Program-made: the position numbers and the translations under genes
From: Patescibacteria group bacterium
Lineage (GTDB): Bacteria > Patescibacteriota > Minisyncoccia > Phycocordibacterales > JACZSL01
Length of the DNA: 57,898 bases
Reading direction: 5' to 3'
NCBI GenBank assembly: GCA_022561335.1
Contig: JADFRL010000002.1
Coordinates: 1 to 57,898, forward strand
The notes under the pieces: model-generated
Told to the model about the DNA's origin: nothing
The model's input: the letters and a program-made list of their open reading frames with translations, nothing else
Database searches by the model: none
Shown here: positions 1,317 to 57,898 of the stretch, piece after piece
How the letters are laid out: the number at the start of each line of letters is the position of its first letter
How positions within the stretch are numbered: the first letter of the stretch is position 1

Positions 1317-2654
1317 ATGGAGGAGAGTAAGAAATCAGTGGCAGCGATTATAGTTTCTGTATTGGCTTTCATATTTTTTGGAAGCCTGCTTGCCATTGCA
1401 TGGAACGTTGCACAAGGTTTGTTTGCCGAAGGCGGTCTTGAGATAGTTGCTCTTAAAAATACCAATCTTGAGGAGAGTTTACTTTTTTATCTCTTTCTAG
1501 TAGGAATTGTAGCAGATGTGTTTTTCTCACTCTTTCTTTTTTTACTGTTGACCACCTATAGGCAAGCGGGATTTCTGGCGAGTCGTATGACCAGAGATTT
1601 ACTTGCTTCCCGTGAAATGTTTCTTCAACTCTACAACAACAGCCCTGTCCCGTACCTTTTAATTTCCAAAGATAGTAAAATTAACCTCCCCAACAAAGCC
1701 GCTCTTCGTTTGTTTGGGTTATCTGCGCAGGAACTTGAAGATCAAAATCTTCTGGATTTTTTTCTGGCAGATGATCTAGATCACGTCCAGACACTTCTTT
1801 CGCGTGTAAAAAATGGCGTGCCCTTTCATGAAGAAGAACTTCAAATAGTGCGCTCCGATGGAACGGTCCGTTGGGTTATCTTTTCAATGTTTTCGTTTAA
1901 AAGTGTGCCTGGTAAAAAATATAAAAGCGGACTTGCAACATTTGTGGATATTACCGAGCGTAAGGAAATAGAGAAAGTTAAAACCGAATTTGTGTCACTC
2001 GCGGCACATCAACTTCGCACTCCTCTCTCTGCGATCAAATGGTACACAGAGCTCCTCGCTTCAAAGGATGTGGGAGGGCTGACGCCCGAGCAAGAGAAGT
2101 ATCTTGAGAAAGTGTATGCGGGGAATGAGAGGATGATTGATTTAGTGAACACTTTTCTTAACGTGTCCAGACTTGAACTGGGAACACTCGCCGTTGATAT
2201 CAAACCAACGGATGTCGTTGAGCTTATGGAGAGTGTTTTTGAAGAGCTTGAAGTTCAAATTCAAGAAAAATATTTTAAACTCCATAAGGAGTATGATGAA
2301 AATATTGCTTTGGTGAATACTGATCCAAAACTGCTCCGTATGGTTTTTCAAAATCTGTTATCAAATGCCGTGAAGTATACACCCAAAGGGGGCGAATTGA
2401 GGGTAGAGATCAAAAAAAGAGGCTCTGAATTTCACATTATAGTGGAAGATTCAGGTTTAGGAATTCCTAAGAATCAACAGGATAAGATTTTTACGAAGCT
2501 CTTTCGGGCTGATAATGCACGTGCACTTGAAACAAAAGGCACGGGATTGGGTCTTTATATAGTAAAAATGATAGTAGAGAAATTCGGAGGTTCCATTAGC
2601 TTTACGTCGGAGCCCAACAAAGGGACCACGTTTAAGGCGGTGTTGCCACTTTGA
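1317..2654 (+). CDS. PAS-domain sensor histidine kinase
   Basis: 2 TM, PAS, H-box AHQLRTPL, N-box NLLSNAVKY, G-boxes DSGLG/GTGLGL. Confidence 0.93.
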   Translation: MEESKKSVAAIIVSVLAFIFFGSLLAIAWNVAQGLFAEGGLEIVALKNTNLEESLLFYLFLVGIVADVFFSLFLFLLLTTYRQAGFLASRMTRDLLASREMFLQLYNNSPVPYLLISKDSKINLPNKAALRLFGLSAQELEDQNLLDFFLADDLDHVQTLLSRVKNGVPFHEEELQIVRSDGTVRWVIFSMFSFKSVPGKKYKSGLATFVDITERKEIEKVKTEFVSLAAHQLRTPLSAIKWYTELLASKDVGGLTPEQEKYLEKVYAGNERMIDLVNTFLNVSRLELGTLAVDIKPTDVVELMESVFEELEVQIQEKYFKLHKEYDENIALVNTDPKLLRMVFQNLLSNAVKYTPKGGELRVEIKKRGSEFHIIVEDSGLGIPKNQQDKIFTKLFRADNARALETKGTGLGLYIVKMIVEKFGGSISFTSEPNKGTTFKAVLPL

Positions 2655-2703
2655 ATACTAAAAGGTATGGTAATATAAGTGCTATAAGTGTATTTAAGGG
2701 ACT

Positions 2704-3087
2704 ATGATTGATAAAAAGTTAATACTCATTATTGACGAAGAGCCGGATATAACTGACGCTCTGAGCCAGAAACTTGAACAAGAAGGATTTAGCACCATTG
2801 CCGCTTATAATGGGGAACAAGGGCTGATGATTATACATGGGGAACCGAAACCGGATCTCATCTTGCTTGATTTGGTCATGCCTACTATGGATGGGTTTAA
2901 AATGCTTGAGGAGCTTCGCAAAGACGAGTGGGGAAGGAAAGTTCCAGTGATATTTCTTACAAATTTGGATGATGAGGAAACAGTTTCGAAGGTGATGAAG
3001 GATAAAGGGTATGAATATCTGGTCAAAACTGAGTGGAAGATTGAAGACGTTGTTTCCAAGGTAAAGGAAAAACTTGAGGGAAAATAA
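2704..3087 (+). CDS. single-domain response regulator (receiver)
   Basis: PDLILLDLVMP phosphoacceptor, LTN, YLVK. Confidence 0.9.
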   Translation: MIDKKLILIIDEEPDITDALSQKLEQEGFSTIAAYNGEQGLMIIHGEPKPDLILLDLVMPTMDGFKMLEELRKDEWGRKVPVIFLTNLDDEETVSKVMKDKGYEYLVKTEWKIEDVVSKVKEKLEGK

Positions 3088-3097
3088 AAAAAGTCAT

Positions 3098-3514
3098 ATG
3101 GATACGAAGAAAACAATTCTTGTCATAGAAGATGAAAAAGACCTCGCCGAAGTTCTTAAAGTAAAGTTGGAAGATGCAGGCTTTGCAACTCACGTCGCTT
3201 TTGACGGAGAAAGTGGTCTAGAGGTAGCAGTTGCTGAACATCCAGATTTAATACTCCTTGACATAGTTTTGCCCGGGATGAACGGAGTGGAAATGCTAAA
3301 GCAATTGCGAAAAGATGAGTGGGGCAAAAACGCTTTGGTAATGATCCTTACCAATTCAGACGACGTAGAGACGATGTCGCAAGTTATAGAAGATGGAGCT
3401 TATGAATATTTTGTCAAGACTGAATGGAAGATTGAGGATATTATTTCCAAGATAAAAGATAAACTAAATGCTGATCAAAACAGAGCAGTATGGAAGGTGG
3501 AAAGAAAATTTTGA
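3098..3514 (+). CDS. single-domain response regulator (receiver)
   Basis: IEDE, PDLILLDIVLP, YFVK; ATG 3098 preferred over TTG 3074. Confidence 0.9.
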   Translation: MDTKKTILVIEDEKDLAEVLKVKLEDAGFATHVAFDGESGLEVAVAEHPDLILLDIVLPGMNGVEMLKQLRKDEWGKNALVMILTNSDDVETMSQVIEDGAYEYFVKTEWKIEDIISKIKDKLNADQNRAVWKVERKF

Positions 3515-4546: not shown

Positions 4547-5401
4547 ATGAAGGAAACTGACATTCGGCGTTTCCCTGTGTATGGTGGGGGAGGATCAGTG
4601 GGGATTTTTGATTCGGGTTTTGGAGGACTCAGTATCTTGCGTGGTCTGGTTGATGTACTTCCACAGTACGACTATGTTTATTTTGGGGACACAGCTCGTA
4701 CGCCATATGGCACGCGCTCCAGTGAGGCTATATATGCATTTACCGAGCAGGCAATAGATTTTTTGTTTAATAAGGGATGTCACATTATCATTCTTGCGTG
4801 CAATACAGCATCGAGTGAAGCGTTGCGGAGACTTCAGCAGGAATATTTACCCCGTCATTTCCCCGATAGGAAGATACTCGGTGTCATCATCCCGTCCGCA
4901 GAGGAGGCAGTATCTGTTACGAAGAATAAGAAAATAGGAGTTATTGCGACAGCCGGAACCATAGCTTCCGGGGCGTTTGAGCGAGAACTGCAAAAACTCA
5001 ATCCTGAAATAATGGTTGTAGAAAAAGCTTGTCCACTTCTTGTTCCGCTTGTAGAGGCTGGGGAAGACGATCCTATTGTAACACAGCTTATTTTGTCGAA
5101 TTATCTTGATCCGCTGTTAAGTCAGCACATAGACACTCTCATATTAGGATGTACGCACTACGAGTTTTTAGTAAGAGATATTCAGTATATTGTAGGAGAC
5201 AATCTGAACATTATTACTCAGGGGAGAGTGCTTACCAAAAGTTTTAAAGACTATTTGAAGCGGCACTGTGAATTAGAGGGGAAGTTAGGGAAAAAATCAA
5301 AACTTAGTTTTTTTAGTACAGATCTTTCAGATAAGTTTACAGTACTTGGCAGTAAGTTTTTCGGAAGAACCATTATACCGGAGCATGTTCGGCTGGATTA
5401 A
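4547..5401 (+). CDS. murI: glutamate racemase
   Basis: FDSGFGG, PYG, ACNTAS, LGCTHY. Confidence 0.95.
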   Translation: MKETDIRRFPVYGGGGSVGIFDSGFGGLSILRGLVDVLPQYDYVYFGDTARTPYGTRSSEAIYAFTEQAIDFLFNKGCHIIILACNTASSEALRRLQQEYLPRHFPDRKILGVIIPSAEEAVSVTKNKKIGVIATAGTIASGAFERELQKLNPEIMVVEKACPLLVPLVEAGEDDPIVTQLILSNYLDPLLSQHIDTLILGCTHYEFLVRDIQYIVGDNLNIITQGRVLTKSFKDYLKRHCELEGKLGKKSKLSFFSTDLSDKFTVLGSKFFGRTIIPEHVRLD

Positions 5402-5993: not shown

Positions 5994-8789
5994 ATGATGC
6001 AAAAACGTCTTGCTTTGTATGGTATCTACGGCCTGATAGCATTGTTTGTTTTTATCGCGCCGCGCTTTTTTCAACTGCTCACTGATTGGTACTGGTTTGG
6101 AGAAATCGGCTTTAGCAATATTTTTACCACCATACTTTTCACGAAAATTCTCTTGGGATTAGGGGTGGGTGCTCTGACCTTTTTTATTATCTACGGCAAT
6201 CTTTGGCTGGCTAGGCGGCTTGTAGCACCAAAGCCGCTGATTGTTCGCCTGCAAAACGGTTTGCAAGAAATAGATTTGGAGAGGTATATTAGTAAATTCT
6301 CCTTGGCCGTCTCGCTGTTTTTTGGATTTTTGACCGGTCTGTTCGGAGCGAGCAAATGGGAGACGGTACTGAAGTATTTTAACGCGGTGCCCTTTAACAC
6401 GGTCGATCCGATTTTTGGCCGTGATATTGGCTTTTACTTTTTTGATTTACCGTTTATTCAGTTTTTGGTCGGGTTTGGGTTTTGGCTCATTATTGTTTCT
6501 TTTATAGGAGCTTTCCTAAGCTACGTTGTACGGGGCGCTATTACTATAAAATCTTTATCCACCCCGTTAGAGGCCCTCTCCTCCTTTGGCAGAGCGGCAG
6601 CCGCCAAGGGCGGCTTGTCTCTAACGGGGTGGATGGAAAAGCCGGCCAAAGTTCACTTGTCAATCCTTGTCGCTTTTTTGTTTGTTTTAACTAGCTTCAA
6701 GATTTATGCCATAAAAATTCCCTCTCTGCTCTATAGCTCTACTGGACCGTTTACAGGTGCCAGCTTTACTGATATTAATGCTGTTTTACCGTTCTTGAAA
6801 ATACTTATTTTTGTTGCCATTATCGCAGCCGTGCTGACTGTGATAAATATTTTTAAAACAAATAACCGACTTCTCATTTTAGCTGTTAGTATTTATGCCG
6901 TAACTTCTATTTTGGGCGGCTCCGTATACCCTTTCTTCCTGCAAAGATTTGTGGTTTTGCCAAATGAGCTGGTTAAAGAAACCCCTTACATAGAGTACAA
7001 TATTGCGGCTACGCGAAAAGCATTTGCCTTGGATCAGGTGCAAGAGCGCGATCTGACAGGTGAGGCCACGCTAACCATATCTGATATCAATAACAACCGC
7101 TCTACCATTAAAAATGTGCGGCTCTGGGACCGCGAACCCTTGCTTGACACATTTGGTCAGCTTCAGGAAATTCGCACATACTATGATTTTATCTCTATTG
7201 ACAACGACCGCTATAACTTGAACGGCGACTACCGCCAGGTTTTGCTTTCTCCCAGAGAGCTTGATTCTGCGAGTCTTCCTCAGCGTACCTTTATCAACGA
7301 GCGTTTGACCTTTACGCATGGTTTCGGGCTTACTCTAAGTCCGGTTAATGAAGTAACGCCAGAGGGTCTGCCGGTGCTATTTTTAAAAGATCTGCCGCCT
7401 TCCTCCAGCATAGACTCGCTTAGAGTGAGCAGGCCGGAAATATACTACGGAGAGTTGGTCAACGATTGGGTTGTGGTCAACACACAAGCCCAAGAGTTCA
7501 ATTATCCATCTGGCGATAAAAATGTCTTTGCAAATTATGAAGGACGGGGGGGTGTTGAAATTAAATCAATTTTCCGCAAAGCGCTGTTTGCCCTGAAATT
7601 TAGGTCATTAAAAATTCTTTTGTCCAATGATATAACAGAAGAGTCAAGAATAATGTATTACCGCAATATTGAGGAGAGAGTCAAGCGGGTGTTGCCTTTT
7701 TTGAGTTTGGATGGTGACCCTTATATAGTTGTTACCAAAGAAGGTGATTTGAAATGGATTTATGACGCCTATACAACCTCAGACCGTTATCCGTATGCTG
7801 AGCGAATGAGAGATATGTTCGATTCCTTATCTAACCGACAGACAAGTTTGCCGGGCAAGAGCCTCAATTATATAAGGAATTCGGTTAAAGTGGTGATTAA
7901 CGCTTATGACGGCAGAATGGTATTTTATATTGCAGATGAAGACGATCCGATTATTAAAACCTACGCCAAGATTTTTGAGGATTCGTTTTTGCCGCTTGAG
8001 CAAATGGATGATGATCTGAAGGCTCATATTAGGTATCCAGAAGATTTATTTGTTTACCAAACGACACTTTACACGGTGTATCACATGGGTGAGGCGCAGA
8101 TTTTCTACAACAGAGAAGATCAGTGGCAGATTCCTGTCATTACAAGCGATGCACGGGCGGACCCCATGATGCGGCATATGATTATGAAACTGCCAGGCGA
8201 AGCCAAGGAAGAGTTTATCCTGATGATCCCGTTTACGCCTCGCGGCAAAGACAATCTCTCGGCATGGATGGTGGCGCGCAATGACGGAGAGTTTTATGGC
8301 CAGTTGGTAGTGTACCGTTTTCCCAAGCAAAAATTGGTCTTTGGACCCAAACAGATTACGAACCGTATCAATCAGGACACAGACATTTCCCAACAGATAT
8401 CTCTCTGGGATCAAAGAGGTTCTGAAGTAATTAGAGGAAGCCTTTTGGTAATTCCGATTGAAGAGTCGCTTATTTACGTTCAACCTATTTATCTGCGGGC
8501 TGAAGGCGGCAGGATTCCTGAACTTAAAAGAGTGATTGTGGCTTATGAAAACCGCATTGCCATGGAAAAAACTCTTGATTTAGCATTAGAGCGAGTGTTT
8601 GGCGGCCAAGTTGCAGTGGACGAAAAAGCGACCACGGCAGTTTTGGGCAAGCAAGCGATTAGCCAAGATTTAATCAAGCAAGCCAGAGATTATTTTGACC
8701 GGGCTATGTCTGCTCAGCGCCGCGGCGACTGGGCTTTGTATGGCGTAGAAATCAGAAAGCTGGGTGAGATATTTGAGAGCGTGAGGTAG
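5994..8789 (+). CDS. UPF0182 family membrane protein
   Basis: DWYWF, DPIFGRDIGFYFF, NVRLWD, DNDRY, FTHGFG, NYIRNSVK, PELKRV. Confidence 0.92.
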   Translation: MMQKRLALYGIYGLIALFVFIAPRFFQLLTDWYWFGEIGFSNIFTTILFTKILLGLGVGALTFFIIYGNLWLARRLVAPKPLIVRLQNGLQEIDLERYISKFSLAVSLFFGFLTGLFGASKWETVLKYFNAVPFNTVDPIFGRDIGFYFFDLPFIQFLVGFGFWLIIVSFIGAFLSYVVRGAITIKSLSTPLEALSSFGRAAAAKGGLSLTGWMEKPAKVHLSILVAFLFVLTSFKIYAIKIPSLLYSSTGPFTGASFTDINAVLPFLKILIFVAIIAAVLTVINIFKTNNRLLILAVSIYAVTSILGGSVYPFFLQRFVVLPNELVKETPYIEYNIAATRKAFALDQVQERDLTGEATLTISDINNNRSTIKNVRLWDREPLLDTFGQLQEIRTYYDFISIDNDRYNLNGDYRQVLLSPRELDSASLPQRTFINERLTFTHGFGLTLSPVNEVTPEGLPVLFLKDLPPSSSIDSLRVSRPEIYYGELVNDWVVVNTQAQEFNYPSGDKNVFANYEGRGGVEIKSIFRKALFALKFRSLKILLSNDITEESRIMYYRNIEERVKRVLPFLSLDGDPYIVVTKEGDLKWIYDAYTTSDRYPYAERMRDMFDSLSNRQTSLPGKSLNYIRNSVKVVINAYDGRMVFYIADEDDPIIKTYAKIFEDSFLPLEQMDDDLKAHIRYPEDLFVYQTTLYTVYHMGEAQIFYNREDQWQIPVITSDARADPMMRHMIMKLPGEAKEEFILMIPFTPRGKDNLSAWMVARNDGEFYGQLVVYRFPKQKLVFGPKQITNRINQDTDISQQISLWDQRGSEVIRGSLLVIPIEESLIYVQPIYLRAEGGRIPELKRVIVAYENRIAMEKTLDLALERVFGGQVAVDEKATTAVLGKQAISQDLIKQARDYFDRAMSAQRRGDWALYGVEIRKLGEIFESVR
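6557..6634. mobile_element. 78-bp inverted-repeat element inserted in frame in the UPF0182 gene
   Basis: Perfect 16-bp IR ATCCACCCCGTTAGAG / CTCTAACGGGGTGGAT; internal hairpin AGCCGCC-AAG-GGCGGCT. Confidence 0.7.
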
Positions 8790-10756: not shown

Positions 10757-11518
10757 TCATCCTTGTTCCACCTCCCTACGCTCGAGGAAGGCCTTGCCAT
10801 GACCATACTCTGTATTAACCGGGATGCCTTTGAAGCAGAGTCCGTGGTCAGCACAATCTGCTTCAGAATAACTATTCCGGTTCACATCCATGAGAGCCTC
10901 GAGTCGGCGAACACCTAAGTCAGTGGCGGTGACATTACCACCATTGGCTAAAACACCGATGGCGATAAGGTTGCCGCCGACGTCTATGACGGCATGCGCT
11001 GCTCTGCGAGCAGACCCTCCTGTGGTTAAGATATCTTCCACGAGGAGAATGCGCCTGCCGTTGACATCAGCGGCAAAACCTCGTCTTAAAACAAACGCTG
11101 GGTGTTTAATGATGAGCTGGTCGCCTTTTTCAAGTGTCACAGAAACTGTTTTTCTTCCATCGATGATGTCCAATGAAATCGATGCATATTTAGATGCTGT
11201 GATAACATCCTCTTGATGCTCGGCATAGAGTGTCAGGACCTCGGGACGATCTGGTCTGAGACGAGTCAGATGGTGAGCTGTCCACTGCGATAAGGCAATA
11301 CCACCAAGAGCAGGTGAAACAACAGCATCAATGTCTTCGTCAGCAAACCGCTCTGCAATTCCCGAACAGAGCTTGGATGCGACACTCGAGAGGAGAGTAG
11401 CGCGATCTTTTGCCACGTAGGTGTCAAGATGTAAACCACTTGTACCTACGAAATGGCCCTTGAGAATTGCACCCTGTGCTTCTAATAGCTTTCGAGTACG
11501 GTCGGGGGTCATACTCAT
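10757..11518 (-). CDS. pyrE: orotate phosphoribosyltransferase
   Basis: GHFVGTSGLH..Y, PALGG, PRPP motif LLVEDILTTGGS; next to pyrF. Confidence 0.85.
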   Translation of the reverse strand: MSMTPDRTRKLLEAQGAILKGHFVGTSGLHLDTYVAKDRATLLSSVASKLCSGIAERFADEDIDAVVSPALGGIALSQWTAHHLTRLRPDRPEVLTLYAEHQEDVITASKYASISLDIIDGRKTVSVTLEKGDQLIIKHPAFVLRRGFAADVNGRRILLVEDILTTGGSARRAAHAVIDVGGNLIAIGVLANGGNVTATDLGVRRLEALMDVNRNSYSEADCADHGLCFKGIPVNTEYGHGKAFLERREVEQG

Positions 11519-11548: not shown

Positions 11549-12274
11549 TCATGTGGCTGTCTGTGATTCGACGAGATTAAGTACCTTTTGCAGGTTCCTT
11601 ATGGGATCCTCTGCTTTCGTGACAGTGCTTCCAAGAACGAGGATGTTGGCACCGTCTCTTGCAGCCTGATCTGGTGAGCCCATACGAACCTGTCCGCGAG
11701 CCTCAGTGTCACCTGGCAATCTAATTCCAGGAACCGCGAAGAGCATACCGTCGAGGGCTGGATTTTGTGAAAGGACACCGACCTCTTTCGCTGAGCAAAC
11801 AACTCCGTGGGCTCCAGCCGATTTAGCCAGTATTGCAAGACGTAGTGCCTCATCCTGTATATTGACACCAGGAGGTAAATCGTCATCGTCAAGGGAGGTA
11901 AGTAAAGTCACGGCGAAGATCCGGGGTGGGCCATACTCAACAGCGGCCTCGATCATTTTGCGCCCTCCCTGAGCGTGGACAGTGGCCGTGTCAATACCGG
12001 CCAGTCTGGCTTGGAGGGCTCGATTAGCAACCGTACCTGGGGTGTCGTGAAATTTCAGGTCGGCCCAGAGATTTAATGCTCTGACACTTCCTTTGGTTTT
12101 AGGGTTTTTATTCCAAGCGTCCCGCAACCCCTTCAATAGGTACGGGTAATTCCATTGGGTATCCCAGAGATCGTTGAGTTTGAGGCCGTCAAGCAAATGC
12201 GCGGTTTTGCGTACGATATTGAAGGCTTTATCAGGACTCATGCCATCAAGGGCTAGGTAAAGTGTGGTTTTCAA
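11549..12274 (-). CDS. pyrF: orotidine-5'-phosphate decarboxylase
   Basis: LALD, DLKFHDTPGTV, VTLLTS, GVVCS, VPGIR. Confidence 0.92.
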   Translation of the reverse strand: MKTTLYLALDGMSPDKAFNIVRKTAHLLDGLKLNDLWDTQWNYPYLLKGLRDAWNKNPKTKGSVRALNLWADLKFHDTPGTVANRALQARLAGIDTATVHAQGGRKMIEAAVEYGPPRIFAVTLLTSLDDDDLPPGVNIQDEALRLAILAKSAGAHGVVCSAKEVGVLSQNPALDGMLFAVPGIRLPGDTEARGQVRMGSPDQAARDGANILVLGSTVTKAEDPIRNLQKVLNLVESQTAT

Positions 12275-22030: not shown

Positions 22031-22693
22031 TCATAATACTTCCTTGATAAAATCGTTGACAGTCTGGATAGGAATAGAGAATCCCACATTAGAAATAGGG
22101 ACCTTGATAGTTATGTCAGGACTGACTGAAACTGGTTGTATCCCTTCCTTAACCACAATTCCCACTAGCTCAAAGTGTTCTTCGTGCCTTCGGTACACCG
22201 CACCTCCTGAATTTCCACCCACTGTTGGAGCGGAAAACTGAATGAGCTTGTGTTTACCGTTTTGAGGATTTGAGATTATCCCCATTGCAGGATATGGAAG
22301 ATAACCACGCCCAGCACCGACAACAAAGATCCTTTCGAAGGTTTTGGTTTTGAGGCTCGCTTTGTTGTGGATATGGGCTACAAAATTGGTGTATATTTCC
22401 ACTCGGAGAATAGAGAGATCAAGCTTCTCACTCTCCTTCACAAGCTCGGCACTGTACAGCTCACCGTTCAAGAAGACTTTAAGCTCCTCTTGTCCCCTGG
22501 TAACGTGATTAGCTGAGATGATGAGCGTATAATCCCGTGAGTAAAAGACCACACCGCTTCCGGAAGTGCCGGATGCCGTAAAGACCTTGGCAACAGGGCG
22601 AACCATCATGTCGTACTTCTGCTCTTGTGTAGGAGGTAAAGTGCATCCAGCCAAGAACAAGAGCAAGGGTAGAAGACTCTTTTTCATTACCAT
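22031..22693 (-). CDS. trypsin-like serine protease lipoprotein
   Basis: Lipobox LAGC; SANHV, DLSIL, GNSGG triad. Confidence 0.85.
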   Translation of the reverse strand: MVMKKSLLPLLLFLAGCTLPPTQEQKYDMMVRPVAKVFTASGTSGSGVVFYSRDYTLIISANHVTRGQEELKVFLNGELYSAELVKESEKLDLSILRVEIYTNFVAHIHNKASLKTKTFERIFVVGAGRGYLPYPAMGIISNPQNGKHKLIQFSAPTVGGNSGGAVYRRHEEHFELVGIVVKEGIQPVSVSPDITIKVPISNVGFSIPIQTVNDFIKEVL

Positions 22694-47240: not shown

Positions 47241-47678
47241 ATGGCCACAACTATCAAAGCATTAAAAGAAAAAAAAGAGGCCTTAAGGGAGCGGTACATA
47301 GAAACCATTGGCCGCAGGAAGGAGGCCGTGGCTCGGGTGAGGCTTTATAAAAGTGCCCGTGAGTCATTTGTTGTTAATAATAGAGAATTAGCAGAATATT
47401 TTCCCATCAGAGCTCTTCAGTCTATTGTGAAGGATCCTTTTATTAACACAAACTTAACTCAAAAATTTACCGTATCAGCCCGCATTCGGGGAGGAGGGGT
47501 GTCGGCGCAAGCTGAGGCTCTGCGGCACGGCATTGCACGAGCGTTGGCTGTATATGACCTGGAACTTCGAGGTCAGCTCAAAAGGGCGGGGTTTCTCAAG
47601 CGAGATCCACGTGCAAAAGAGAGGAAGAAATTTGGTCTCAAAAAGGCGCGCAAGGCACCTCAATGGTCGAAGCGCTAG
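47241..47678 (+). CDS. rpsI: 30S ribosomal protein S9
   Basis: GRRKEAVARV, GGG, ERKK.GLKKARKAPQWSKR. Confidence 0.97.
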   Translation: MATTIKALKEKKEALRERYIETIGRRKEAVARVRLYKSARESFVVNNRELAEYFPIRALQSIVKDPFINTNLTQKFTVSARIRGGGVSAQAEALRHGIARALAVYDLELRGQLKRAGFLKRDPRAKERKKFGLKKARKAPQWSKR

Positions 47679-47758
47679 GAGTGGTTTTCAATGGGTCTGC
47701 TCTTTTTAGTTGATACTACAGCTCCTTTAAATTGGAGAGTAAGAATGGCACACTATTT

Positions 47759-48349
47759 ATGAAATCAAAGAAACATAGCGATAAATCAAAAGTTGACAAG
47801 AAGAATAAAAGAGAGTATAGTTCTGACGAGGAGTTTGATGTTTTGGACATTGATGAGAAGTCAGGTGAGGCCGTAGCTAAGTTGAAGCAGATGCTTAAAG
47901 AGTGCCAGCAAGAACGGAGGGAATTCCTTGATGGATGGCAGCGCAGCAAAGCAGAGCTTATCAATGCCCGAAAGCAGGATGTCGAGCAAAATAAAAAAGC
48001 TTTCCTGCGTATACAGGAAGATTTTATACTTCGACTACTTCCTATACTCGATAGTTTTGACATGGCATTTGCTGATACAAAAGAGGCGGTAAAAGTTGAC
48101 AGCGATTGGGTAGTTGGAGTCCAAAATATTCACTCTCAATTAAAGGCTTTCCTGAGTTCAGTCGGTGTCAGTACTATAGAGCAGATTGGGGAACCGTTTG
48201 ACCCAAAGAAACATGACTCAGCGGAAACCGTTTTGACAAAAAAAAGAGAAGAAGACGGATTGATTGTCGAGGTGCTTCAGAAGGGATATGTTTTTGGTGA
48301 CACTATTGTTCGAGCAGCTCGAGTACGTGTGGCCGAATTTAATGCATAA
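47759..48349 (+). CDS. grpE: nucleotide exchange factor GrpE
   Basis: LLPILD, FDP..H, QKGY..R.A.V.V. Confidence 0.93.
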   Translation: MKSKKHSDKSKVDKKNKREYSSDEEFDVLDIDEKSGEAVAKLKQMLKECQQERREFLDGWQRSKAELINARKQDVEQNKKAFLRIQEDFILRLLPILDSFDMAFADTKEAVKVDSDWVVGVQNIHSQLKAFLSSVGVSTIEQIGEPFDPKKHDSAETVLTKKREEDGLIVEVLQKGYVFGDTIVRAARVRVAEFNA

Positions 48350-48393
48350 ATTATAAAGACAGTTGAATAAAGGTAATTAAGTAATATATAAAT

Positions 48394-50325
48394 ATGGGAA
48401 AAATTATCGGAATAGATTTAGGAACCACTAACTCTGCCGTAGCAGTTATCGAAGGTGGTGAGCCAAAAATAATTGAGAATGCCGAAGGAGCGCGAACCAC
48501 GCCTTCAGTAGTGGCGCTTTCGAAAGCCGGAGAAAATCTCTCGGGGCTTATTGCAAAACGACAAGCGGTGACCAATCCACAAAATACCATCTCTGGGATA
48601 AAACGATTTATAGGACATCGTTTCGACGAAAAAGCAGTACAGAAGGAAAAGAAAATTGTGCCGTACGCTGTTAAAAAAGCTTCTGATGGGGGAGTACTCG
48701 TTGTCATGGGAGATAAAGATTATCGTCCGGAAGAAATTTCAGCAATGATTCTACAGAAATTGAAGCGAGATGCCGAGGCAAAAATAGGGGAAACAATTAC
48801 TGAGGCTGTCATTACGGTTCCGGCGTACTTCAACGATGCTCAACGAAAAGCAACTAAAGATGCGGGAAGCATTGCGGGTCTCGATGTCAAGAGAATAATA
48901 AATGAACCTACAGCAGCCGCTCTGGCCTATGGCTTCAACAAGAAAAAGGACGAGAAGATAGTGGTGTTTGATTTTGGCGGCGGAACTTTTGATATCTCTG
49001 TGCTTGAGGTGGGGGATGACGTTATTGAAGTGAAATCGACTGATGGTGATTATCGTATGGGAGGCAAGGATATTGATCAGAATATAATTCGCTGGATTGC
49101 AGATGAATTTAAAAAGGAGTCCGGCATAGATATAACGACTGATCCTTTGGCCCTACAGCGTCTGGATGAAGCAGCGGAAAAAGCTAAACACGAACTCTCT
49201 ACGACTACTGAGACAGAGATAAATATACCGTTTATTACTTCCGACGCCTCTGGTCCTAAACATCTGTTGCTCAAAATGAGCCGGGCAACCCTTGAAGAAC
49301 TGGCACGTGATTATATCGATCGTTCAATTAAAATAACAAAGAGAGCTATGGAGAGTTCTTCATTTAGCATATCCGATATTGATGAAATAATTCTTGTGGG
49401 AGGACAGACGCGAATGCCGGCTATTCAGAAGGCTGTAAAGGATTACTTTGGAAAGGAGCCTAATCAGACAATTAACCCCGACGAAGTGGTAGCTATGGGA
49501 GCAGCCATTCAAGCAGGAATATTCCAGGGAGACGTGAAAGATATTTTGCTTCTCGACGTCATTCCTCTTTCCTTGAGTATAGAAACTCTTGGAAGTGTCT
49601 CTACAAAACTTATTGAACGCAATACTACCATCCCGACTTCAAAGACTCAGACGTTTTCAACTGCAGCCGATAATCAGACATCGGTTGAAATTCATGTTAT
49701 TCAGGGAGAGCGAGCTATGGCGGTTGACAACAAAAGTCTTGGGAGATTCATTCTCGACGGTATTCCCCCATCTGCACGAGGCATGCCTCAGATAGCGGTG
49801 ACCTTTGATATAGATGCAGATGGTATTTTGAGCGTTACAGCAAAAGATAAAGCATCCGGAAAAGAGCAATCAATTCGCATTGAAGCCCAATCCAGTTTAA
49901 CTGAAGAAGAGATCGAGCGCATGAAGAGGGATGCTGAGTCACACGTGGAGGAAGATAAAAAAATAAAGGAAACAACGGAAGCTCGGAATCTTGCTGATCA
50001 GCTTGTCTATACTGCCGAAAAATCTATAAAAGATAATGCAGATAAAATTTCAGGGGAATTAAAGAAAACGGTTCAAGAGAAAATCAAAGCTGTTAAAAGT
50101 GTAAAGGATGGTGAAGATAGGGAAGCCATCAAAGAGGCTACGGAGGCTTTATCTTCGCAGCTTCAGAAGATAGGTGAGGCGGTCTATGAGAAAGCTCAAC
50201 CCCAACCAGGCGCCAAAGGAACAGAAGATTCCAACTCAGATAACAGTATTCGTGATGCTGAATTTAAGGAGAAAGACGGCGAAGGAGACGGCGGAAACTC
50301 TGACAGCAACACTGATAAAAAATAA
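48394..50325 (+). CDS. dnaK: chaperone DnaK
   Basis: [23 protein letters not shown]. Confidence 0.98.
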
Positions 50326-50445
50326 ATAGTATATTGCACAGCTATCGTTGATTTTTTGATAGGGTTTGCAATAATAGCAGTAGGCTTATTAGCGACACAG
50401 AACGAGCGAAATGGAGAAGTTTCACTTTTTCATTTCCGAGCCGAG

Positions 50446-50463
50446 CCTGCCTGCGCAGGCAGG
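50446..50463. repeat. perfect 18-bp palindrome CCTGCCTGCGCAGGCAGG
   Basis: Self-complementary; followed by GAGCT like the 9793 copy. Confidence 0.65.
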
Positions 50464-50580
50464 GAGCTCATAATAGGTAAATACCCGAGAAAAGGTGCAT
50501 TGCACTTTTCTCTCTAACTACAAGACGGTATAAGCAAGAGGGCTTGCCCTAAGGGACCTTTACTACTCTAATTAATCGCA

Positions 50581-51639
50581 ATGTCAAAAGATTATTATAC
50601 AATTCTTGGGGTGCAAAAAAGTGCCAATGCCGAAGAAATTAAGAAGGCATTTCGAAAGCTTGCACATAAATATCATCCGGATAAAAACAACGGCGACCTG
50701 GTAAAATTCAAAGAAATAAGTGAAGCGTATAGCGTCCTGTCGAATGAGAAACGCCGGGCTGAATATGATTCGTACGGCCGTGTGTTCAATGAAGGAGGAG
50801 GATCTCCATTTGAGGGATTTGATTTTTCAAGTGCAGGGTTCAATGCTCAAGATTTTGCCAACATTGATTTCTCTGATATATTTGGGGATATTTTTGGAGG
50901 TGCGCGAAGTAGAATACGACGTGGACGTGACATTTCGATTGACATCGAGCTTACGTTGAGAGAGGCTATCTTTGGAGGTGAAAAGCGTGTGCTGATTACA
51001 AAGGTTTCCCTTTGCGGCACCTGCAGTGGCAGTGGCGCCAAGATAGAGACCGAACTGGGCACCTGTACCGTCTGCAATGGCAAGGGAAATATCCATGAAA
51101 ATAAACGTTCTCTGCTGGGCACCTTTACTACCATGAGGGCGTGTGGAGCGTGCTATGGGAAAGGTACGGTACCTAAACAGAAGTGTTCAGCATGCAAGGG
51201 GCATGGCGTGCTCAGAAAAGAAGAAGAAATTATTATCGCCGTGCCTGCAAATATAAACGACGGAGAGATGGTCCGCATGAGCGGGGCAGGCGAAGCTGTC
51301 TCTGCAGGAACGCCAGGAGACCTTTATGTTAAGCTTCACGTTGAGAGTGACCCTCGCTTTAGGCGTGAGGGACACAATATAGTAACCAATCTTACCATTA
51401 AACTGACCGACGCAATGCTTGGCAAAGAGTATACCGTTCCGTCTTTTGATGGGGATCTCTCAGTTAAAATTCCATCAGGCGCAACGCCAGGTGAGATGCT
51501 CCGAGTGCGCGGCAAAGGAGCTCCAAAAGGAGGCGGTCAGCGCGGAGATCTTCTTATAAAAGTAAACATAACACTTCCCAAGAAATTATCACGAAAAGCA
51601 AGAAGACTTGTTGAGGAACTGCAAAACGAAGGAATTTAA
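50581..51639 (+). CDS. dnaJ: chaperone DnaJ
   Basis: HPD, four CxxCxGxG repeats. Confidence 0.97.
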   Translation: MSKDYYTILGVQKSANAEEIKKAFRKLAHKYHPDKNNGDLVKFKEISEAYSVLSNEKRRAEYDSYGRVFNEGGGSPFEGFDFSSAGFNAQDFANIDFSDIFGDIFGGARSRIRRGRDISIDIELTLREAIFGGEKRVLITKVSLCGTCSGSGAKIETELGTCTVCNGKGNIHENKRSLLGTFTTMRACGACYGKGTVPKQKCSACKGHGVLRKEEEIIIAVPANINDGEMVRMSGAGEAVSAGTPGDLYVKLHVESDPRFRREGHNIVTNLTIKLTDAMLGKEYTVPSFDGDLSVKIPSGATPGEMLRVRGKGAPKGGGQRGDLLIKVNITLPKKLSRKARRLVEELQNEGI

Positions 51640-53877: not shown

Positions 53878-55482
53878 ATGGAAATATTTGCAATTTCGGG
53901 ACTTATAAATGGAATCGTTGCACTTGGTTTTGGTACTCTAGTCTTTTTTAAAAACAGTAAGGCATTGATAAATGTCTTATTTTTCCTTATGACGTTAGCT
54001 CTTACACTTTGGGCGTTTAGTTATTGGCAGTGGATGTCTAGTGGTGATGCTACAACGGCAATTTTTTGGGTAAGAGTACTATCGATTGGTTCACTTCTTA
54101 TTCCTGTCTTTTTCTTTCATTGGGTATTAGCAGTATTAAAAGAGATACGCGGTGTAAAAAAAATAGTCCTTGTATTTGCATACGTATTCGTATTAGCAAG
54201 TTTATCTTTTTCTTTTTCTCAATATTTTATCATAGACGTAGAACAAAAATTATATTTTCGTTTTTGGCCAAACCCGGGAATTGTTTATACTCTTTATTTC
54301 TTTGTTATATATATTGGTCTTATACTTTACTCTCTGTACTTACTCATAGCTCGCTTTCTTACTTCAGTTGGAGAACATAAAAACCAAATCCTATACATTA
54401 TTTTAGGAGCTATCTTTGGTTTCGGAGGTGGTTTGAGCAACTTTTTTTTGTGGTATGACATTCCCATACCCCCCTATGGCAATTTCTTAGTTGTTTTATT
54501 CCCTTTCTTTCTTAGTTACTCAATAGTTAAATATCGCTTTTTTAATATAAAGACGATTGCTACTGAGATTTTAGTTGTCTTTATCCTTATCACACTTTTT
54601 ATACAAATCTTACTTGCAAACTCATTATTCGAGATGATACTGCGGGGAACTTTTTTTACTCTTGTTGCAATTCTTGGATATCTTCTAATACAAAGCGTAT
54701 ATCGAGAAGTACAGACACGTGAAGAAATTGAAATGCTTGCAGAGGATCTTGAAAAGGCAAATGTGCGTCTGAAAGAGCTTGATCGTCTTAAATCAGAATT
54801 TGTTTCCATTGCTTCCCATCAATTACGGAGCCCTCTCACTTCCATAGGGGGATATGCATCACTTATCCTTGAAGGCTCATTTGGAGAGGTTTCAAAAGCA
54901 GTTAAAGAAGCGGTAAAGAAAATTTTTGACTCAAGCGGCCTCATGATGACTTCTGTTCAGGATTTCCTTGATGTGTCTCGCATTGAACAAGGCAAAATGG
55001 ACTACCATTTTGAAATTTTTGATATAAGGAAATTGACTGAGCTTGTCGTAGAAGAGTTGCGCCCCACAGCTCAAAAAAAGGGTCTTACCCTCTCTTTCAA
55101 CGCAAGTGAAAATGGTAGGTATAATATCAAGGCTGACTACAGCAAAATAAAACAGGTTTTGAACAACTTAATAGATAATGCGATAAAGTACACTGTGAAA
55201 GGCTCCGTAACTGTTGGTGTGTCTAAAAAGGAGGAGAGTAAAAAGGTGCTTATAGCAATTGCAGATACTGGAATGGGAATATCAAAAGAAACATTACCGA
55301 AACTGTTTGATAAATTTGTGCGCGCACGCAATGCCAATACTGTAAATGTTACTGGCACGGGACTTGGCTTGTACGTTGTAAAGGAGATGATCAAAGCCCA
55401 TAAAGGAAAAGTCTGGGCAGAATCAGATGGGGAGGGAAGTGGAGCTACTTTCTATGTAGAACTCAATGCCCATCAAGATTGA
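53878..55482 (+). CDS. 7TM (HisKA_7TM-like) sensor histidine kinase
   Basis: Large multi-TM N-terminus, SHQLRSPL, NLIDNAIKY, GTGLGL. Confidence 0.92.
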   Translation: MEIFAISGLINGIVALGFGTLVFFKNSKALINVLFFLMTLALTLWAFSYWQWMSSGDATTAIFWVRVLSIGSLLIPVFFFHWVLAVLKEIRGVKKIVLVFAYVFVLASLSFSFSQYFIIDVEQKLYFRFWPNPGIVYTLYFFVIYIGLILYSLYLLIARFLTSVGEHKNQILYIILGAIFGFGGGLSNFFLWYDIPIPPYGNFLVVLFPFFLSYSIVKYRFFNIKTIATEILVVFILITLFIQILLANSLFEMILRGTFFTLVAILGYLLIQSVYREVQTREEIEMLAEDLEKANVRLKELDRLKSEFVSIASHQLRSPLTSIGGYASLILEGSFGEVSKAVKEAVKKIFDSSGLMMTSVQDFLDVSRIEQGKMDYHFEIFDIRKLTELVVEELRPTAQKKGLTLSFNASENGRYNIKADYSKIKQVLNNLIDNAIKYTVKGSVTVGVSKKEESKKVLIAIADTGMGISKETLPKLFDKFVRARNANTVNVTGTGLGLYVVKEMIKAHKGKVWAESDGEGSGATFYVELNAHQD

Positions 55483-55551
55483 CAAAATTAGTTCCTTCTA
55501 TAATGCTTTAAAATAAGTGCCTGAAACATTATTCGTATCACTTGATAAGGA

Positions 55552-56053
55552 ATGAGCAAAGAAAAATGATATTCGAGAAAGTCCGCTCAGGCGCGCGTAT
55601 TTGCTTCTAAACGTGAATAATCCAACTGAACTTTTCAATACATATTTGATAGAAGATCAGAAAATAGTTACATCTAAAATTTCTGATTATCATGATCCAA
55701 AACTTATTACAAACAAAGTAAGAAGCATATTAGAAAAGGTTGATGCTCGTAAGATAACAAAGGAAGAGCAACACGAACGGCGCTTAATATTATGGCTCTG
55801 GTATCACCACGCGATCAGCTATGCCGTGTGGGGATATAAAGATAAAAGACGAGCTCAGAAATACTCATCATTGGCTCTTAAATACCATCCTACGAATCAT
55901 CCCAATAAAATTACTCGCTTATTATATTTACTCGTACGTGATCGATTTGCAGAGGCAAATACATGGGCAAAAACTATCAAAAAAGAAAATTTAGGGCGTA
56001 CAACTGCATTTAAATTATTGAAATTCTACAAAAAAGGAGGATTTTTTAATTAA
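55552..56053 (+). CDS. unknown WYHHAIS/NHPNKITRLLY protein, copy 1 (5' frameshift; track ORF 55601-56053)
   Basis: Paralog of 56415-56915; homology extends upstream of TTG 55601, and ATG 55552 is one base out of frame. Confidence 0.7.
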
Positions 56054-56064
56054 AAATGCCTAAC

Positions 56065-56093
56065 TTTACTGTATTCAGAGTTTGTAGTATTCT
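56065..56093 (+). promoter_or_regulatory. sigma-70-like promoter of the precursor gene
   Basis: TTTACT-N17-TATTCT. Confidence 0.4.
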
Positions 56094-56149
56094 GCAGACA
56101 GAGCTGTAACTTAGCTCTGCTAATTAACCTGAAAGGAGGTGATCTCTTA

Positions 56150-56308
56150 ATGAAAGACATTAAAGAGTTCGAAATAAACGAACGCACACCGCTTATGCTA
56201 CGGCGGATCGAGGAGAAGCCAGCGGTGACTCACCCAACCACGAACAACATGACGGTTGTGACGACTCCAGGTATGGAGCCCGAAATGCATGACCAAAAGG
56301 AAGATTAA
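56150..56308 (+). CDS. putative graspetide (ATP-grasp RiPP) precursor, 52 aa (not in ORF track)
   Basis: GAAAGGAGGT SD; MKDIKEFEINERTPLMLRRIEEKPAVTHPTTNNMTVVTTPGMEPEMHDQKED; own terminator; ATP-grasp ligase nearby. Confidence 0.75.
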   Translation: MKDIKEFEINERTPLMLRRIEEKPAVTHPTTNNMTVVTTPGMEPEMHDQKED

Positions 56309-56346
56309 CAGCGCGAAGGGTAGTTTTCTCCCTTTGTGCTCCAATA

Positions 56347-56376
56347 AAAGCCGCGATGAGTTTTCATCGCGGCTTT
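56347..56376 (+). terminator. intrinsic terminator after precursor
   Basis: AAAGCCGCGATGA-GTTT-TCATCGCGGCTTT. Confidence 0.75.
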
Positions 56377-56414
56377 ACTTATCAAATTATATTATGCTCT
56401 GCTATAATCAAAAT

Positions 56415-56915
56415 ATGGGAAGTAAAAAGAAGATTAACATTAAAAAAAGTCCACTTAAAGAAGCATATATATTGCTAGATGCAAAAGATCCCGGGGGACT
56501 CGATACTAAGTATAGAGAGAAAGATCAAATTCTCATGAAATCAGTTTCATGGGATTATAAGAGCCCAACACTTTTAATTCATAAAATAAAAGATATTTTG
56601 GAGCACGCTGAAATAAGTGGACTTTCAGCAGACGAGAAATATTGGCGCCTACACATATTGTGGTCATGGTATCATCACGCGATCAGTTGTGCCGTCTGGC
56701 GCTATCATGACCAAGCAAAAGCGCAGGTGTTTGCAAAGCAGGCCCTTATATATCAACCGGAAAATCATCCGAACAAAATTACGCGCCTTCTGTACTTTCT
56801 TGTGCATGATAAGCTGGCGGAGGCTGAAACATGGCAAAAAGGCATTACTACAGAACCAGAAAAAACTACGGCTATACGTCTGATGGAAGAATACAAAATT
56901 AATGGTCTTTTTTGA
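56415..56915 (+). CDS. unknown WYHHAIS/NHPNKITRLLY protein, copy 2 (166 aa)
   Basis: ATG 56415 six nt after extended -10 TGCTATAAT; paralog of copy 1. Confidence 0.75.
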   Translation: MGSKKKINIKKSPLKEAYILLDAKDPGGLDTKYREKDQILMKSVSWDYKSPTLLIHKIKDILEHAEISGLSADEKYWRLHILWSWYHHAISCAVWRYHDQAKAQVFAKQALIYQPENHPNKITRLLYFLVHDKLAEAETWQKGITTEPEKTTAIRLMEEYKINGLF

Positions 56916-56932
56916 CAGCTTTTGGTCGTAAA

Positions 56933-56967
56933 AAAAAGCCGCGATAATGAAATCTCTGCGGCTTTTT
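56933..56967. terminator. bidirectional terminator
   Basis: AAAAAGCCGC...GCGGCTTTTT between convergent genes. Confidence 0.65.
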
Positions 56968-56970
56968 CCC

Positions 56971-57897
56971 TTATACTTTCTTTCTTTCAAAAAGTGACTC
57001 GAGCATATCTGCTACGGCCTCAGGTATAGGAAGCTTAGCAAAGTCTGCAATCCAACCCCACTGTCCGGTTGGATTGACCTCTAAGAAGACAAAGTCTTCC
57101 TCGGGGGTCTCGATGAGATCTATCGCGCCGTATCGTAATCCAATTTTTTCCATGAAGCGCAGCAATTTCTGCTGAATATTTGCAGGTAGGTGAGATTGAA
57201 CGTGCGCCACATGCTCAAAGTCATAGTGCCGCCAGTCTACCTTTGTTGCTTCACTTGCTTGAGAATCTATTCTGCAAGACAGAACACGATTTCCAATTAC
57301 CATAACCCTGTGCTCGCAGTGTTTCTTTATGTATTATTGAGAGAAAATTGGGCACGCACGAATTGCTATACTTCTTTTAATCAACTCCTTGTGAGAAAAC
57401 CGTTGGGAGTAGAGAAAGTATCTTCCCTTATCGTCCAGACGAACATAACCAATTGACTTCAGCAAAAGTCCGTCGTGGTCATCAGAAAAGATTGTAACAC
57501 TCTCTGGATCGTTGCTTATCAATGTACGTGGTGCGATTAGACCGCACTGTTGTGCAATTAGCTGCTGATAGAGTTTGTTGCTTGCAAGAAAATCGACGGT
57601 CTCTTTCCGATTTACCCAAGAACATTCAAGGGTGGAAAGCAGAGAGCGGACAGCAGTCCGCGACTCGTTCTCAACGAATCGATCTTCAAGAGAGGAGCAC
57701 GTCGCTGTTGAGGAAACAGCACTCCCGCGTACATACCATGCAACATCAATGTCCGAGATAGGCAAGCGGAAACTCTCAGGCTCTCCCGTGTCCAATCTAA
57801 AGACATCGACGAAGCCAACAATATGACCTCCTTCATCCAAAGCTACACTAATCCTTTCTTCACTAGGGAAGCGCGAAGGGTCGAAAACATATATACA
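56971..57897 (-). pseudogene. MvdD/RimK-like ATP-grasp ligase interrupted by one in-frame TAA (5' end beyond window)
   Basis: FDPSRFP, WVN..A.NKLYQ..A...GL..PRTLISNDP, PIFSQ*YIKKHCEHRVMVIG, IDSQ..DWR, YGAIDLI, FLEVNPTGQW; both ORFs share one frame. Confidence 0.85.
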
Positions 57898-57898
57898 T

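Follow-up and report, generated by a model that had tools for sequence, protein, structure and literature searches.

A probable graspetide module with a conserved short precursor at the right end of a Patescibacteria contig

Results and Discussion

Gene content of the locus

The stretch of DNA analyzed here (the window) is the whole of contig JADFRL010000002.1 (57,898 nt; C25 among the contigs of this genome) from a Patescibacteria group bacterium, whose assembly (GCA_022561335.1) holds 667 kb on 36 contigs and is 89.7% complete. At the right end of the contig, 3′ of a gene for a 7TM histidine kinase (HK), four genes probably make up a module for a graspetide, that is, an omega-ester peptide made by the ribosome and modified after translation (RiPP). 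Central to it is an open reading frame (ORF) of 52 amino acids (56150–56308) on the plus strand, present as given in a preliminary description of the locus that had been made from the sequence letters. Convergent to it, on the minus strand, lies a gene for an ATP-grasp ligase (56971–57897); the two stop codons are 663 nt apart, close to the earlier estimate of about 0.7 kb. The ligase gene, assigned by its translation, by hidden Markov models (HMMs) and by a search of the PDB, is cut off at its 5′ end because the window is the entire contig, and it holds an in-frame TAA at 57334–57336. Two paralogous genes, here called parA (55552–56053) and parB (56415–56915), flank the short ORF on the plus strand and went unmentioned in the preliminary description. 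The start of parA is disrupted in the assembly: under translation table 11 its ORF runs from a TTG at 55601, and homology to parB extends up to 55559. Apart from the parA/parB paralogy and the hairpins described below, no repeats were found within 55300–57898.

The ATP-grasp ligase

The ligase (P0004) was scored with its stop codon read through as X. Among NCBIfam models, the highest scores were those of TIGR04187 (ATP-grasp ribosomal peptide maturase, 190 bits), TIGR04185 (MvdC, 176 bits) and TIGR04184 (MvdD, 169 bits), and the two halves of the ligase, searched separately, scored in the same way. A sequence search of the PDB, for which the query was an intact homologue 45% identical to the window ligase (P0005), returned five matches at E ≤ 0.01, namely AMdnB (7m4s; E = 3.6e-32), MdnB (5ig8; 1.2e-30), CdnC (3.6e-30), MdnC (5ig9; 5.6e-30) and one MvdD-like protein. 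The motifs on which the preliminary description had based its MvdD/MvdC-type assignment (FDPSRFP, NKLYQQ, PRTLISND, IDSQ..DWR and FLEVNPTGQW) all occur in the translation, and the window copy retains every one of the 48 columns invariant among 20 ligase homologues. Judged from P0005, about 30 N-terminal residues are missing; these were not found on the other contigs of the genome.

Weak matches to RimK (50 bits), MptN (42), LysX (26), glutathione synthase (18) and GSH-S_ATP (17), together with the ATP-grasp fold common to these families, might point instead to a RimK/LysX/GshB-type amino acid ligase of primary metabolism beside an unrelated or spurious small ORF. We consider this highly improbable: the graspetide models score three to four times higher, and no RimK-type structure appeared at E ≤ 0.01 in the PDB search, all of whose matches are graspetide-type. 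The resemblance to RimK, an alpha-L-glutamate ligase, lies in the shared fold and in a match well under the model's cut-off of 143 bits; unlike RimK, the window ligase has a small leader-core peptide as its genomic partner. In the comparison with RimK, LysX and GshB that had been set in advance by the preliminary description, the enzyme thus groups with the graspetide synthetases.

At E ≤ 1e-25, TIGR04187 found matches in 23 of 301 genomes sampled from the order to which the host belongs (22 of 190 genera), but in none of 14 control genomes, so that the distribution of the ligase within the order is patchy. Its named relatives come from Patescibacteria metagenome-assembled genomes: Paceibacterota, third-party annotation (TPA) assemblies labeled “Saccharibacteria”, Wolfebacteria and Uhrbacteria.

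The precursor family

To place the 52-residue ORF, we drew on scans with the ligase, which gathered 28 metagenome loci and 10 genome loci. Thirty loci (the window, L003, L015, L018–L038 and L046–L051) form a close clade, with a ligase at least 45% identical to that of the window in every full-length comparison, and in 28 of them the peptide adjoins the ligase (tblastn). The two loci without it are L036, on a contig that stops 128 nt beyond the ligase, and L033, with a truncated neighboring gene. Many of the 30 loci are near-duplicates, and the number of distinct peptide sequences is 23. Beside ligases that are more distant (33–43% identity), the same search found the peptide in none of 11 loci, three of which carry another candidate precursor family. 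A relative, G042, encodes an intact 330-residue ligase and a convergent 68-residue ORF with the same leader and core. Two close homologues of the peptide (72 and 80% identical) were retrieved from 5.8 billion proteins, and a profile search of 1.84 billion representatives yielded 39 matches at E ≤ 1e-3, of which 34 had E ≤ 1e-10, all of these 55–83 residues long. One weaker profile match, P0041, was disregarded as an odd repetitive protein.

Nucleotide variation in the family is that of coding sequence. Across 19 distinct nucleotide versions, the mean pairwise difference at codon positions 1, 2 and 3 was 0.25, 0.22 and 0.62 in the core and 0.36, 0.13 and 0.73 in the leader; third positions vary about three times as much as positions 1 and 2, and the codons of the invariant Thr, Glu, Asp and Gln vary synonymously. 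The ORF at 56150–56308 is a real, conserved gene, and its conservation near homologous ligases, which the preliminary description had likewise named as a test, tells together with the coding signature against an ORF that is spurious or unrelated to the ligase. A gene this small is easily overlooked by gene callers and is worth annotating.

The peptide consists of a leader (TPLMLRRIEE) and a core (TVVTTPGMEPEMHDQKED). Columns that are invariant in the family comprise a Pro and a Leu in the leader and a Thr, Glu, Asp, Gln and Asp in the core; two Thr/Ser positions and one Gly are nearly so. The leader motif can be written TP[LIV][LM]LRR and the core T-x-x-[TS]-[TS]-x-G-x3-E-x2-D-Q-x2-D, which gives three conserved hydroxyl donors and three conserved acid acceptors. 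The earlier reading of the core as Thr donors followed by Glu/Asp acceptors and a Lys holds in the family for the donors and acceptors; the Lys in DQKED of the window is replaced elsewhere by N, E, R, Q, S, C, M and others. With no conserved core Lys, an omega-amide (lactam) is therefore not expected, which corrects the earlier reading, and from the motif one would expect up to three omega-ester (macrolactone) rings and no lactam. Our guess is that the rings are nested in a hairpin-like order around the conserved Gly.

Expression signals of the precursor gene

The precursor gene is preceded by AAGGAGGTGATC (56133–56144, plus strand), a 12-nt perfect match to the anti-Shine-Dalgarno complement that ends 5 nt 5′ of the ATG. 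As the preliminary description had noted, such a Shine-Dalgarno (SD) sequence stands out in a window poor in them: in the 20 nt upstream of the 40 ORFs of at least 150 residues, the longest match was at most 5 nt for 37 and 6 nt for three. The latter three all lie on the minus strand (at about 10757–11518, 11549–12274 and 22031–22693), and the genes of the contig are otherwise almost all without an SD. The sequence AAGGAGGT occurs five times in the window against 1.6 expected. SD-like sequences are also found upstream of most homologous peptide genes.

Two terminator-like hairpins (56310–56340 and 56347–56376, plus strand) follow the gene, with a folding energy of −40.7 kcal/mol (z = −7.0; 0 of 200 shuffles equally stable) and a 13-nt inverted repeat (I6) that is 100% complementary, in agreement with the terminator ascribed to the gene earlier. 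A simple terminator scan did not pick them up, we think because A-U pairs lengthen the stem into the T-run. The promoter of its own that had also been ascribed to the gene was not recovered: a scan for consensus promoters detected none 5′ of the peptide gene, where by eye just an 8/12 candidate can be seen. The single good site of the scan (TTATCA-18-TATAAT with TG, a 10/12 consensus match, at 56379–56408 on the plus strand) precedes parB, not the peptide gene. Among the public sequencing runs, none is listed as holding RNA; one that is labeled metatranscriptomic WGA (whole-genome amplification) is probably DNA.

The third gene

A third gene is directly adjacent in 29 of the 30 close loci, the exception being L029, where the contig ends right after the peptide. 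It encodes a tetratricopeptide repeat (TPR) protein at 13 loci (227–243 residues; Pfam TPR_12 and others), a protein of the family that we call f8 at 12, and DUF6624 at four (PF20329; 84 bits for L043). In the window, f8 is represented twice, by parA and parB, whose products are 46–47% identical; that of parB has 166 residues. Both are without a Pfam match at E ≤ 1, and an f8 homologue reached 14 bits against TPR_2 (E = 0.056), under the cut-off of 27. The AlphaFold model of the parB product (predicted local distance difference test score, 94.2) is all-helical with eight helices. Its top structural matches (VIA) are TPR domains, many of them peptide-binding (Sec72, PlcR, the TPR of FKBP, PrgX), with Z scores of 8–10, a range common for helical repeats. 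A Foldseek search of the PDB with the same model gave no match at E ≤ 0.001, and the best-superposing rows were again TPR domains (TM 0.5–0.58); ESM Atlas leads for f8 are TPR clusters (0.93–0.95). We refer to the product as a TPR-like accessory protein, which may have a TPR-type helical-repeat fold. The hhalign comparison of f8 with the TPR neighbors (f4) gave a probability of 2.7%, so that homology of the two accessory families is not shown. A complex prediction for ligase, precursor and f8 protein (the L031 trio, with alignments and f8 as the partner) scored 0.19 against a mark of 0.32, a value that gives no verdict on binding either way.

Some f8 genes lie at L012, L013 and L014 (in genomes G023, G027 and G017, respectively) with neither ligase nor peptide within 1.5 kb. 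An N-terminal ligase query found no ligase in any of the three genomes, and the TIGR04187 model was also unmatched in G017 and G023. On a Paceibacterota contig (L051), a second ligase together with a DUF6624 gene (2183–3471, minus strand) was observed about 2.4 kb from a ligase-peptide-f8 module.

Comparison with known systems

Patescibacteria, or the candidate phyla radiation (CPR), have tiny genomes and few known specialized metabolites. Graspetide ligases of the CPR were described by Makarova et al. (2022, Biol Direct 17:7, PMC8939145); in the parts of that paper covered here, they fall into two branches, 10 clusters are distinguished, their precursors have a Phhx(1,2)h leader (first 30 residues) and a core of the form TxxxTx(6-10)Dx(1-4)D, and their neighbors are TPR proteins and an uncharacterized “cluster 23” family. 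The window agrees with that account in its CPR host, MvdD-like ligase, short precursor, hydrophobic P-led leader and, in the kind of neighbor, TPR repeats, except that its accessory gene belongs to a short TPR-like family below Pfam thresholds. The window core, T-VVT-T-PGMEPEMH-D-QKE-D (T-VVT-T-x8-D-x3-D), fits the published signature, which we applied as that of branch 1, and homologous precursors preserve the pattern throughout the family. Carter et al. (2026, ACS Chem Biol 21:698, PMC13097080) define RODEO groups 27 and 42, with many examples from candidate phyla, and in the portion of the paper covered DUF6624 is reported as a frequent companion of group 42. Our clade resembles that group in having DUF6624 as the third gene at four of 30 loci; the window itself has f8, not DUF6624.

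The preliminary description had put the locus forward as a candidate new system. Judged against the covered parts of Makarova et al., the module is a graspetide system of an already described kind and not a new one, and since CPR graspetide clusters, the core signature and TPR neighbors were published in 2022, the conceptual advance is small. The precursor family may already be listed in the figures or supplements of either paper. The covered parts of both report no experimentally characterized CPR graspetide, and the precursor family, being well defined and having an unambiguous partner enzyme, offers a concrete and cheap expression target for a first one.

The microviridin system (MdnA with MdnB/MdnC, or MvdE with MvdC/MvdD) supplies the closest solved enzymes, MdnB and MdnC, and would share with the module a leader-guided macrocyclization by ATP-grasp ligases that joins Thr/Ser onto Asp/Glu. 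Unlike it, the module has one ligase, both at the locus and in the genome, instead of two (MvdC and MvdD types). The window core lacks TxKxPSD and has no conserved Lys, there is no acetyltransferase, and the ligase scores far under the microviridin equivalog cut-offs (MvdC, 176 against 425 bits; MvdD, 169 against 475 bits). That the core fits neither the microviridin nor the plesiocin motifs had been recognized from the letters and stands. Microviridins have an established activity as protease inhibitors.

Proposed function and state of the window copy

We put the probability at about 85% that the locus is a minimal graspetide module of a Patescibacteria/CPR bacterium, with the 52-residue product as its precursor. 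Building on the ligase family, the conserved precursor and the linkage of the genes, leader binding, ester chemistry and ring number can be predicted as follows. The leader TP[LIV][LM]LRR would dock on the MvdD/MvdC-type ligase, which with ATP would activate the side-chain carboxylates of the invariant Glu and the two Asp; these would then be linked with the core's three conserved Thr/Ser hydroxyls, giving a product with at most three macrolactone rings, its mass changed by up to −54 Da. The third, TPR-like protein would be part of the module, duplicated here as parA and parB.

Several points weigh against this interpretation. All HMM scores of the ligase lie under the curated NCBIfam cut-offs (for TIGR04187, 190 against 350 bits), and no significant Pfam match was obtained for it; the graspetide models nevertheless rank best, and we therefore assign the enzyme to the graspetide synthetase lineage, as a divergent member. 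The window leader (P-L-M-L-R-R-I, residues 14–20) fits the Phhx(1,2)h motif, as given in the covered part of Makarova et al., only loosely, the spacing to the last hydrophobic residue being 3 and not 1–2. Homologues of f8 stand without a nearby ligase in three genomes (G017, G023 and G027), so that the link between this family and the module is not strict. A leader peptidase or dedicated exporter was not found in the window, nor was Peptidase_C39 in the genome. Finally, the ligase ORF is interrupted by the TAA as well as cut off by the contig end, and the genome, 89.7% complete, yielded no second ligase.

These last points also bear on the possibility that the locus is a decaying relic, in which the ligase gene has become a pseudogene, the start of parA is lost and no modified peptide is made, the peptide gene surviving because the lesions are recent. 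The TAA stands where all homologues read on (in G042 the site is a Glu, in QEYIEK), and among 27 ligase matches in the 301 genomes of the order, stops occur in just this one and one other. To assess the lesions, contigs from four public runs were compared over 55400–57898. In all four, five extra nucleotides (AGCAA) follow position 55554 and bring the ATG at 55552 in frame with parA; in the window this ATG is out of frame, which amounts to a 5-nt deletion at the parA start. At the TAA, both of the two runs that cover the site have a C at 57336, which changes TAA to GAA (Glu). As these sister contigs are about 99.4% identical to the window, their GAA means that the ligase lesion is either strain-specific or an assembly error, and near-identical strains carry intact versions of the ligase and parA. 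The peptide gene and parB show no differences between window and sister contigs, the SD and terminator of the precursor gene are also identical, and the retention of all family-invariant ligase residues noted above argues in the same direction, against a relic. The lesions are either recent decay or assembly errors, and as written this copy would be inactive unless they are assembly errors. On balance, a relic seems to us a real possibility, at somewhat under even odds. Of the nine substitutions between window and sister contigs, seven are concentrated toward the 5′ end of parA (55567–55779), beside the 5-nt deletion and the contig break point.

Histidine kinase context and possible mobility

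The HK gene (53878–55482, plus strand; Pfam HisKA_7TM, HisKA and HATPase_c) directly adjoins the module, and 12 of the 30 loci have HK genes, or remnants of their 3′/C-terminal ends, within the flanks retrieved. Since a cyclic AgrD peptide is sensed by AgrC, it might be supposed that the peptide is likewise a signal, exported as a macrocycle and sensed by the adjacent 7TM kinase. The flanks, however, offer a simpler account of this adjacency. At two loci the module lies between the 3′ end of a full-length HK gene and a degenerate copy of it in direct orientation: in L021 the copies span 98 nt and are 74% identical (5209–5306 and 7577–7674), and in L037 they span 137 nt and are 88% identical (7889–8025 and 5171–5307). 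Such bracketing resembles an insertion scar at the 3′ end of the HK gene, and with conserved synteny it explains the position of the kinase more simply than signaling does. Moreover, a response regulator was not seen next to any of the HKs examined, and no exporter is consistently present at the loci. We therefore hold a signaling role to be very unlikely.

The window itself may be bracketed in the same way. Another contig of the genome, C17, carries a frameshifted HK 3′ remnant (5105–5210) 38 nt from its end, which over 108 nt is 87% identical to window 55361–55468; beyond it lie ORFs that resemble tRNA synthetases (by eye, from their N-termini). In L019 the module is flanked by Tryptophanyl/tyrosyl-type and Asp/Lys/Asn-type synthetases (Pfam), and L021 also has synthetases of these families. 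In all four runs, contigs break off at 55453–55482, within the HK 3′ end, and one extends 226 nt beyond the window end. The HK remnants, C17 and these breaks suggest that C17 continues the window at its right end, with the module sitting in a duplicated HK 3′ end. Two runs have a contig that departs from the window at 56116, just 5′ of the peptide SD, into sequence like an HK C-terminus, which suggests a strain-level rearrangement of the cassette.

A more far-reaching proposal, which we advance as speculation and think unlikely, is that ligase, precursor and accessory gene form a small cassette inserted or captured at the HK 3′ end, where it leaves a duplicated HK 3′ remnant, and in which the interchangeable third gene is an obligatory partner of the synthetase or the peptide; this would amount to a CPR-specific, partner-dependent biosynthesis, possibly tied to HK signaling between episymbiont and host. 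The near-constant third gene and the duplicated HK 3′ end in any case provide testable leads on the function and mobility of these clusters.

Other features and small ORFs

Between the convergent parB and ligase genes lies a weak hairpin (56933–56967; −13.8 kcal/mol, z = −2.1). Upstream of the HK gene (47241–51639), housekeeping genes encode ribosomal protein S9, GrpE, DnaK and DnaJ; after them come an acyltransferase gene and a Methyltransf_20-like gene, immediately 5′ of the HK gene.

Other small ORFs were seen beside more distant graspetide-type ligases at L004 (914–1102, plus strand), L005 (930–1124, minus), L007 (396–560, plus), L009 (2187–2318, minus) and L010 (916–1083, minus). They have leaders of the PF[ML]F/PLML type and tails in which Thr/Ser precede Asp/Glu, one with a microviridin-like TKDPYSD, and look like further CPR precursor families. 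A different peptide family lies directly upstream of ligases 33–43% identical to that of the window at L041 (5448–5714, plus strand), L043 (1128–1319, plus) and L045 (92–325, plus); its leaders read LPFLLL or PFALAF, its tails are T-rich and then D-rich, and DUF6624 follows downstream in L041 and L043.

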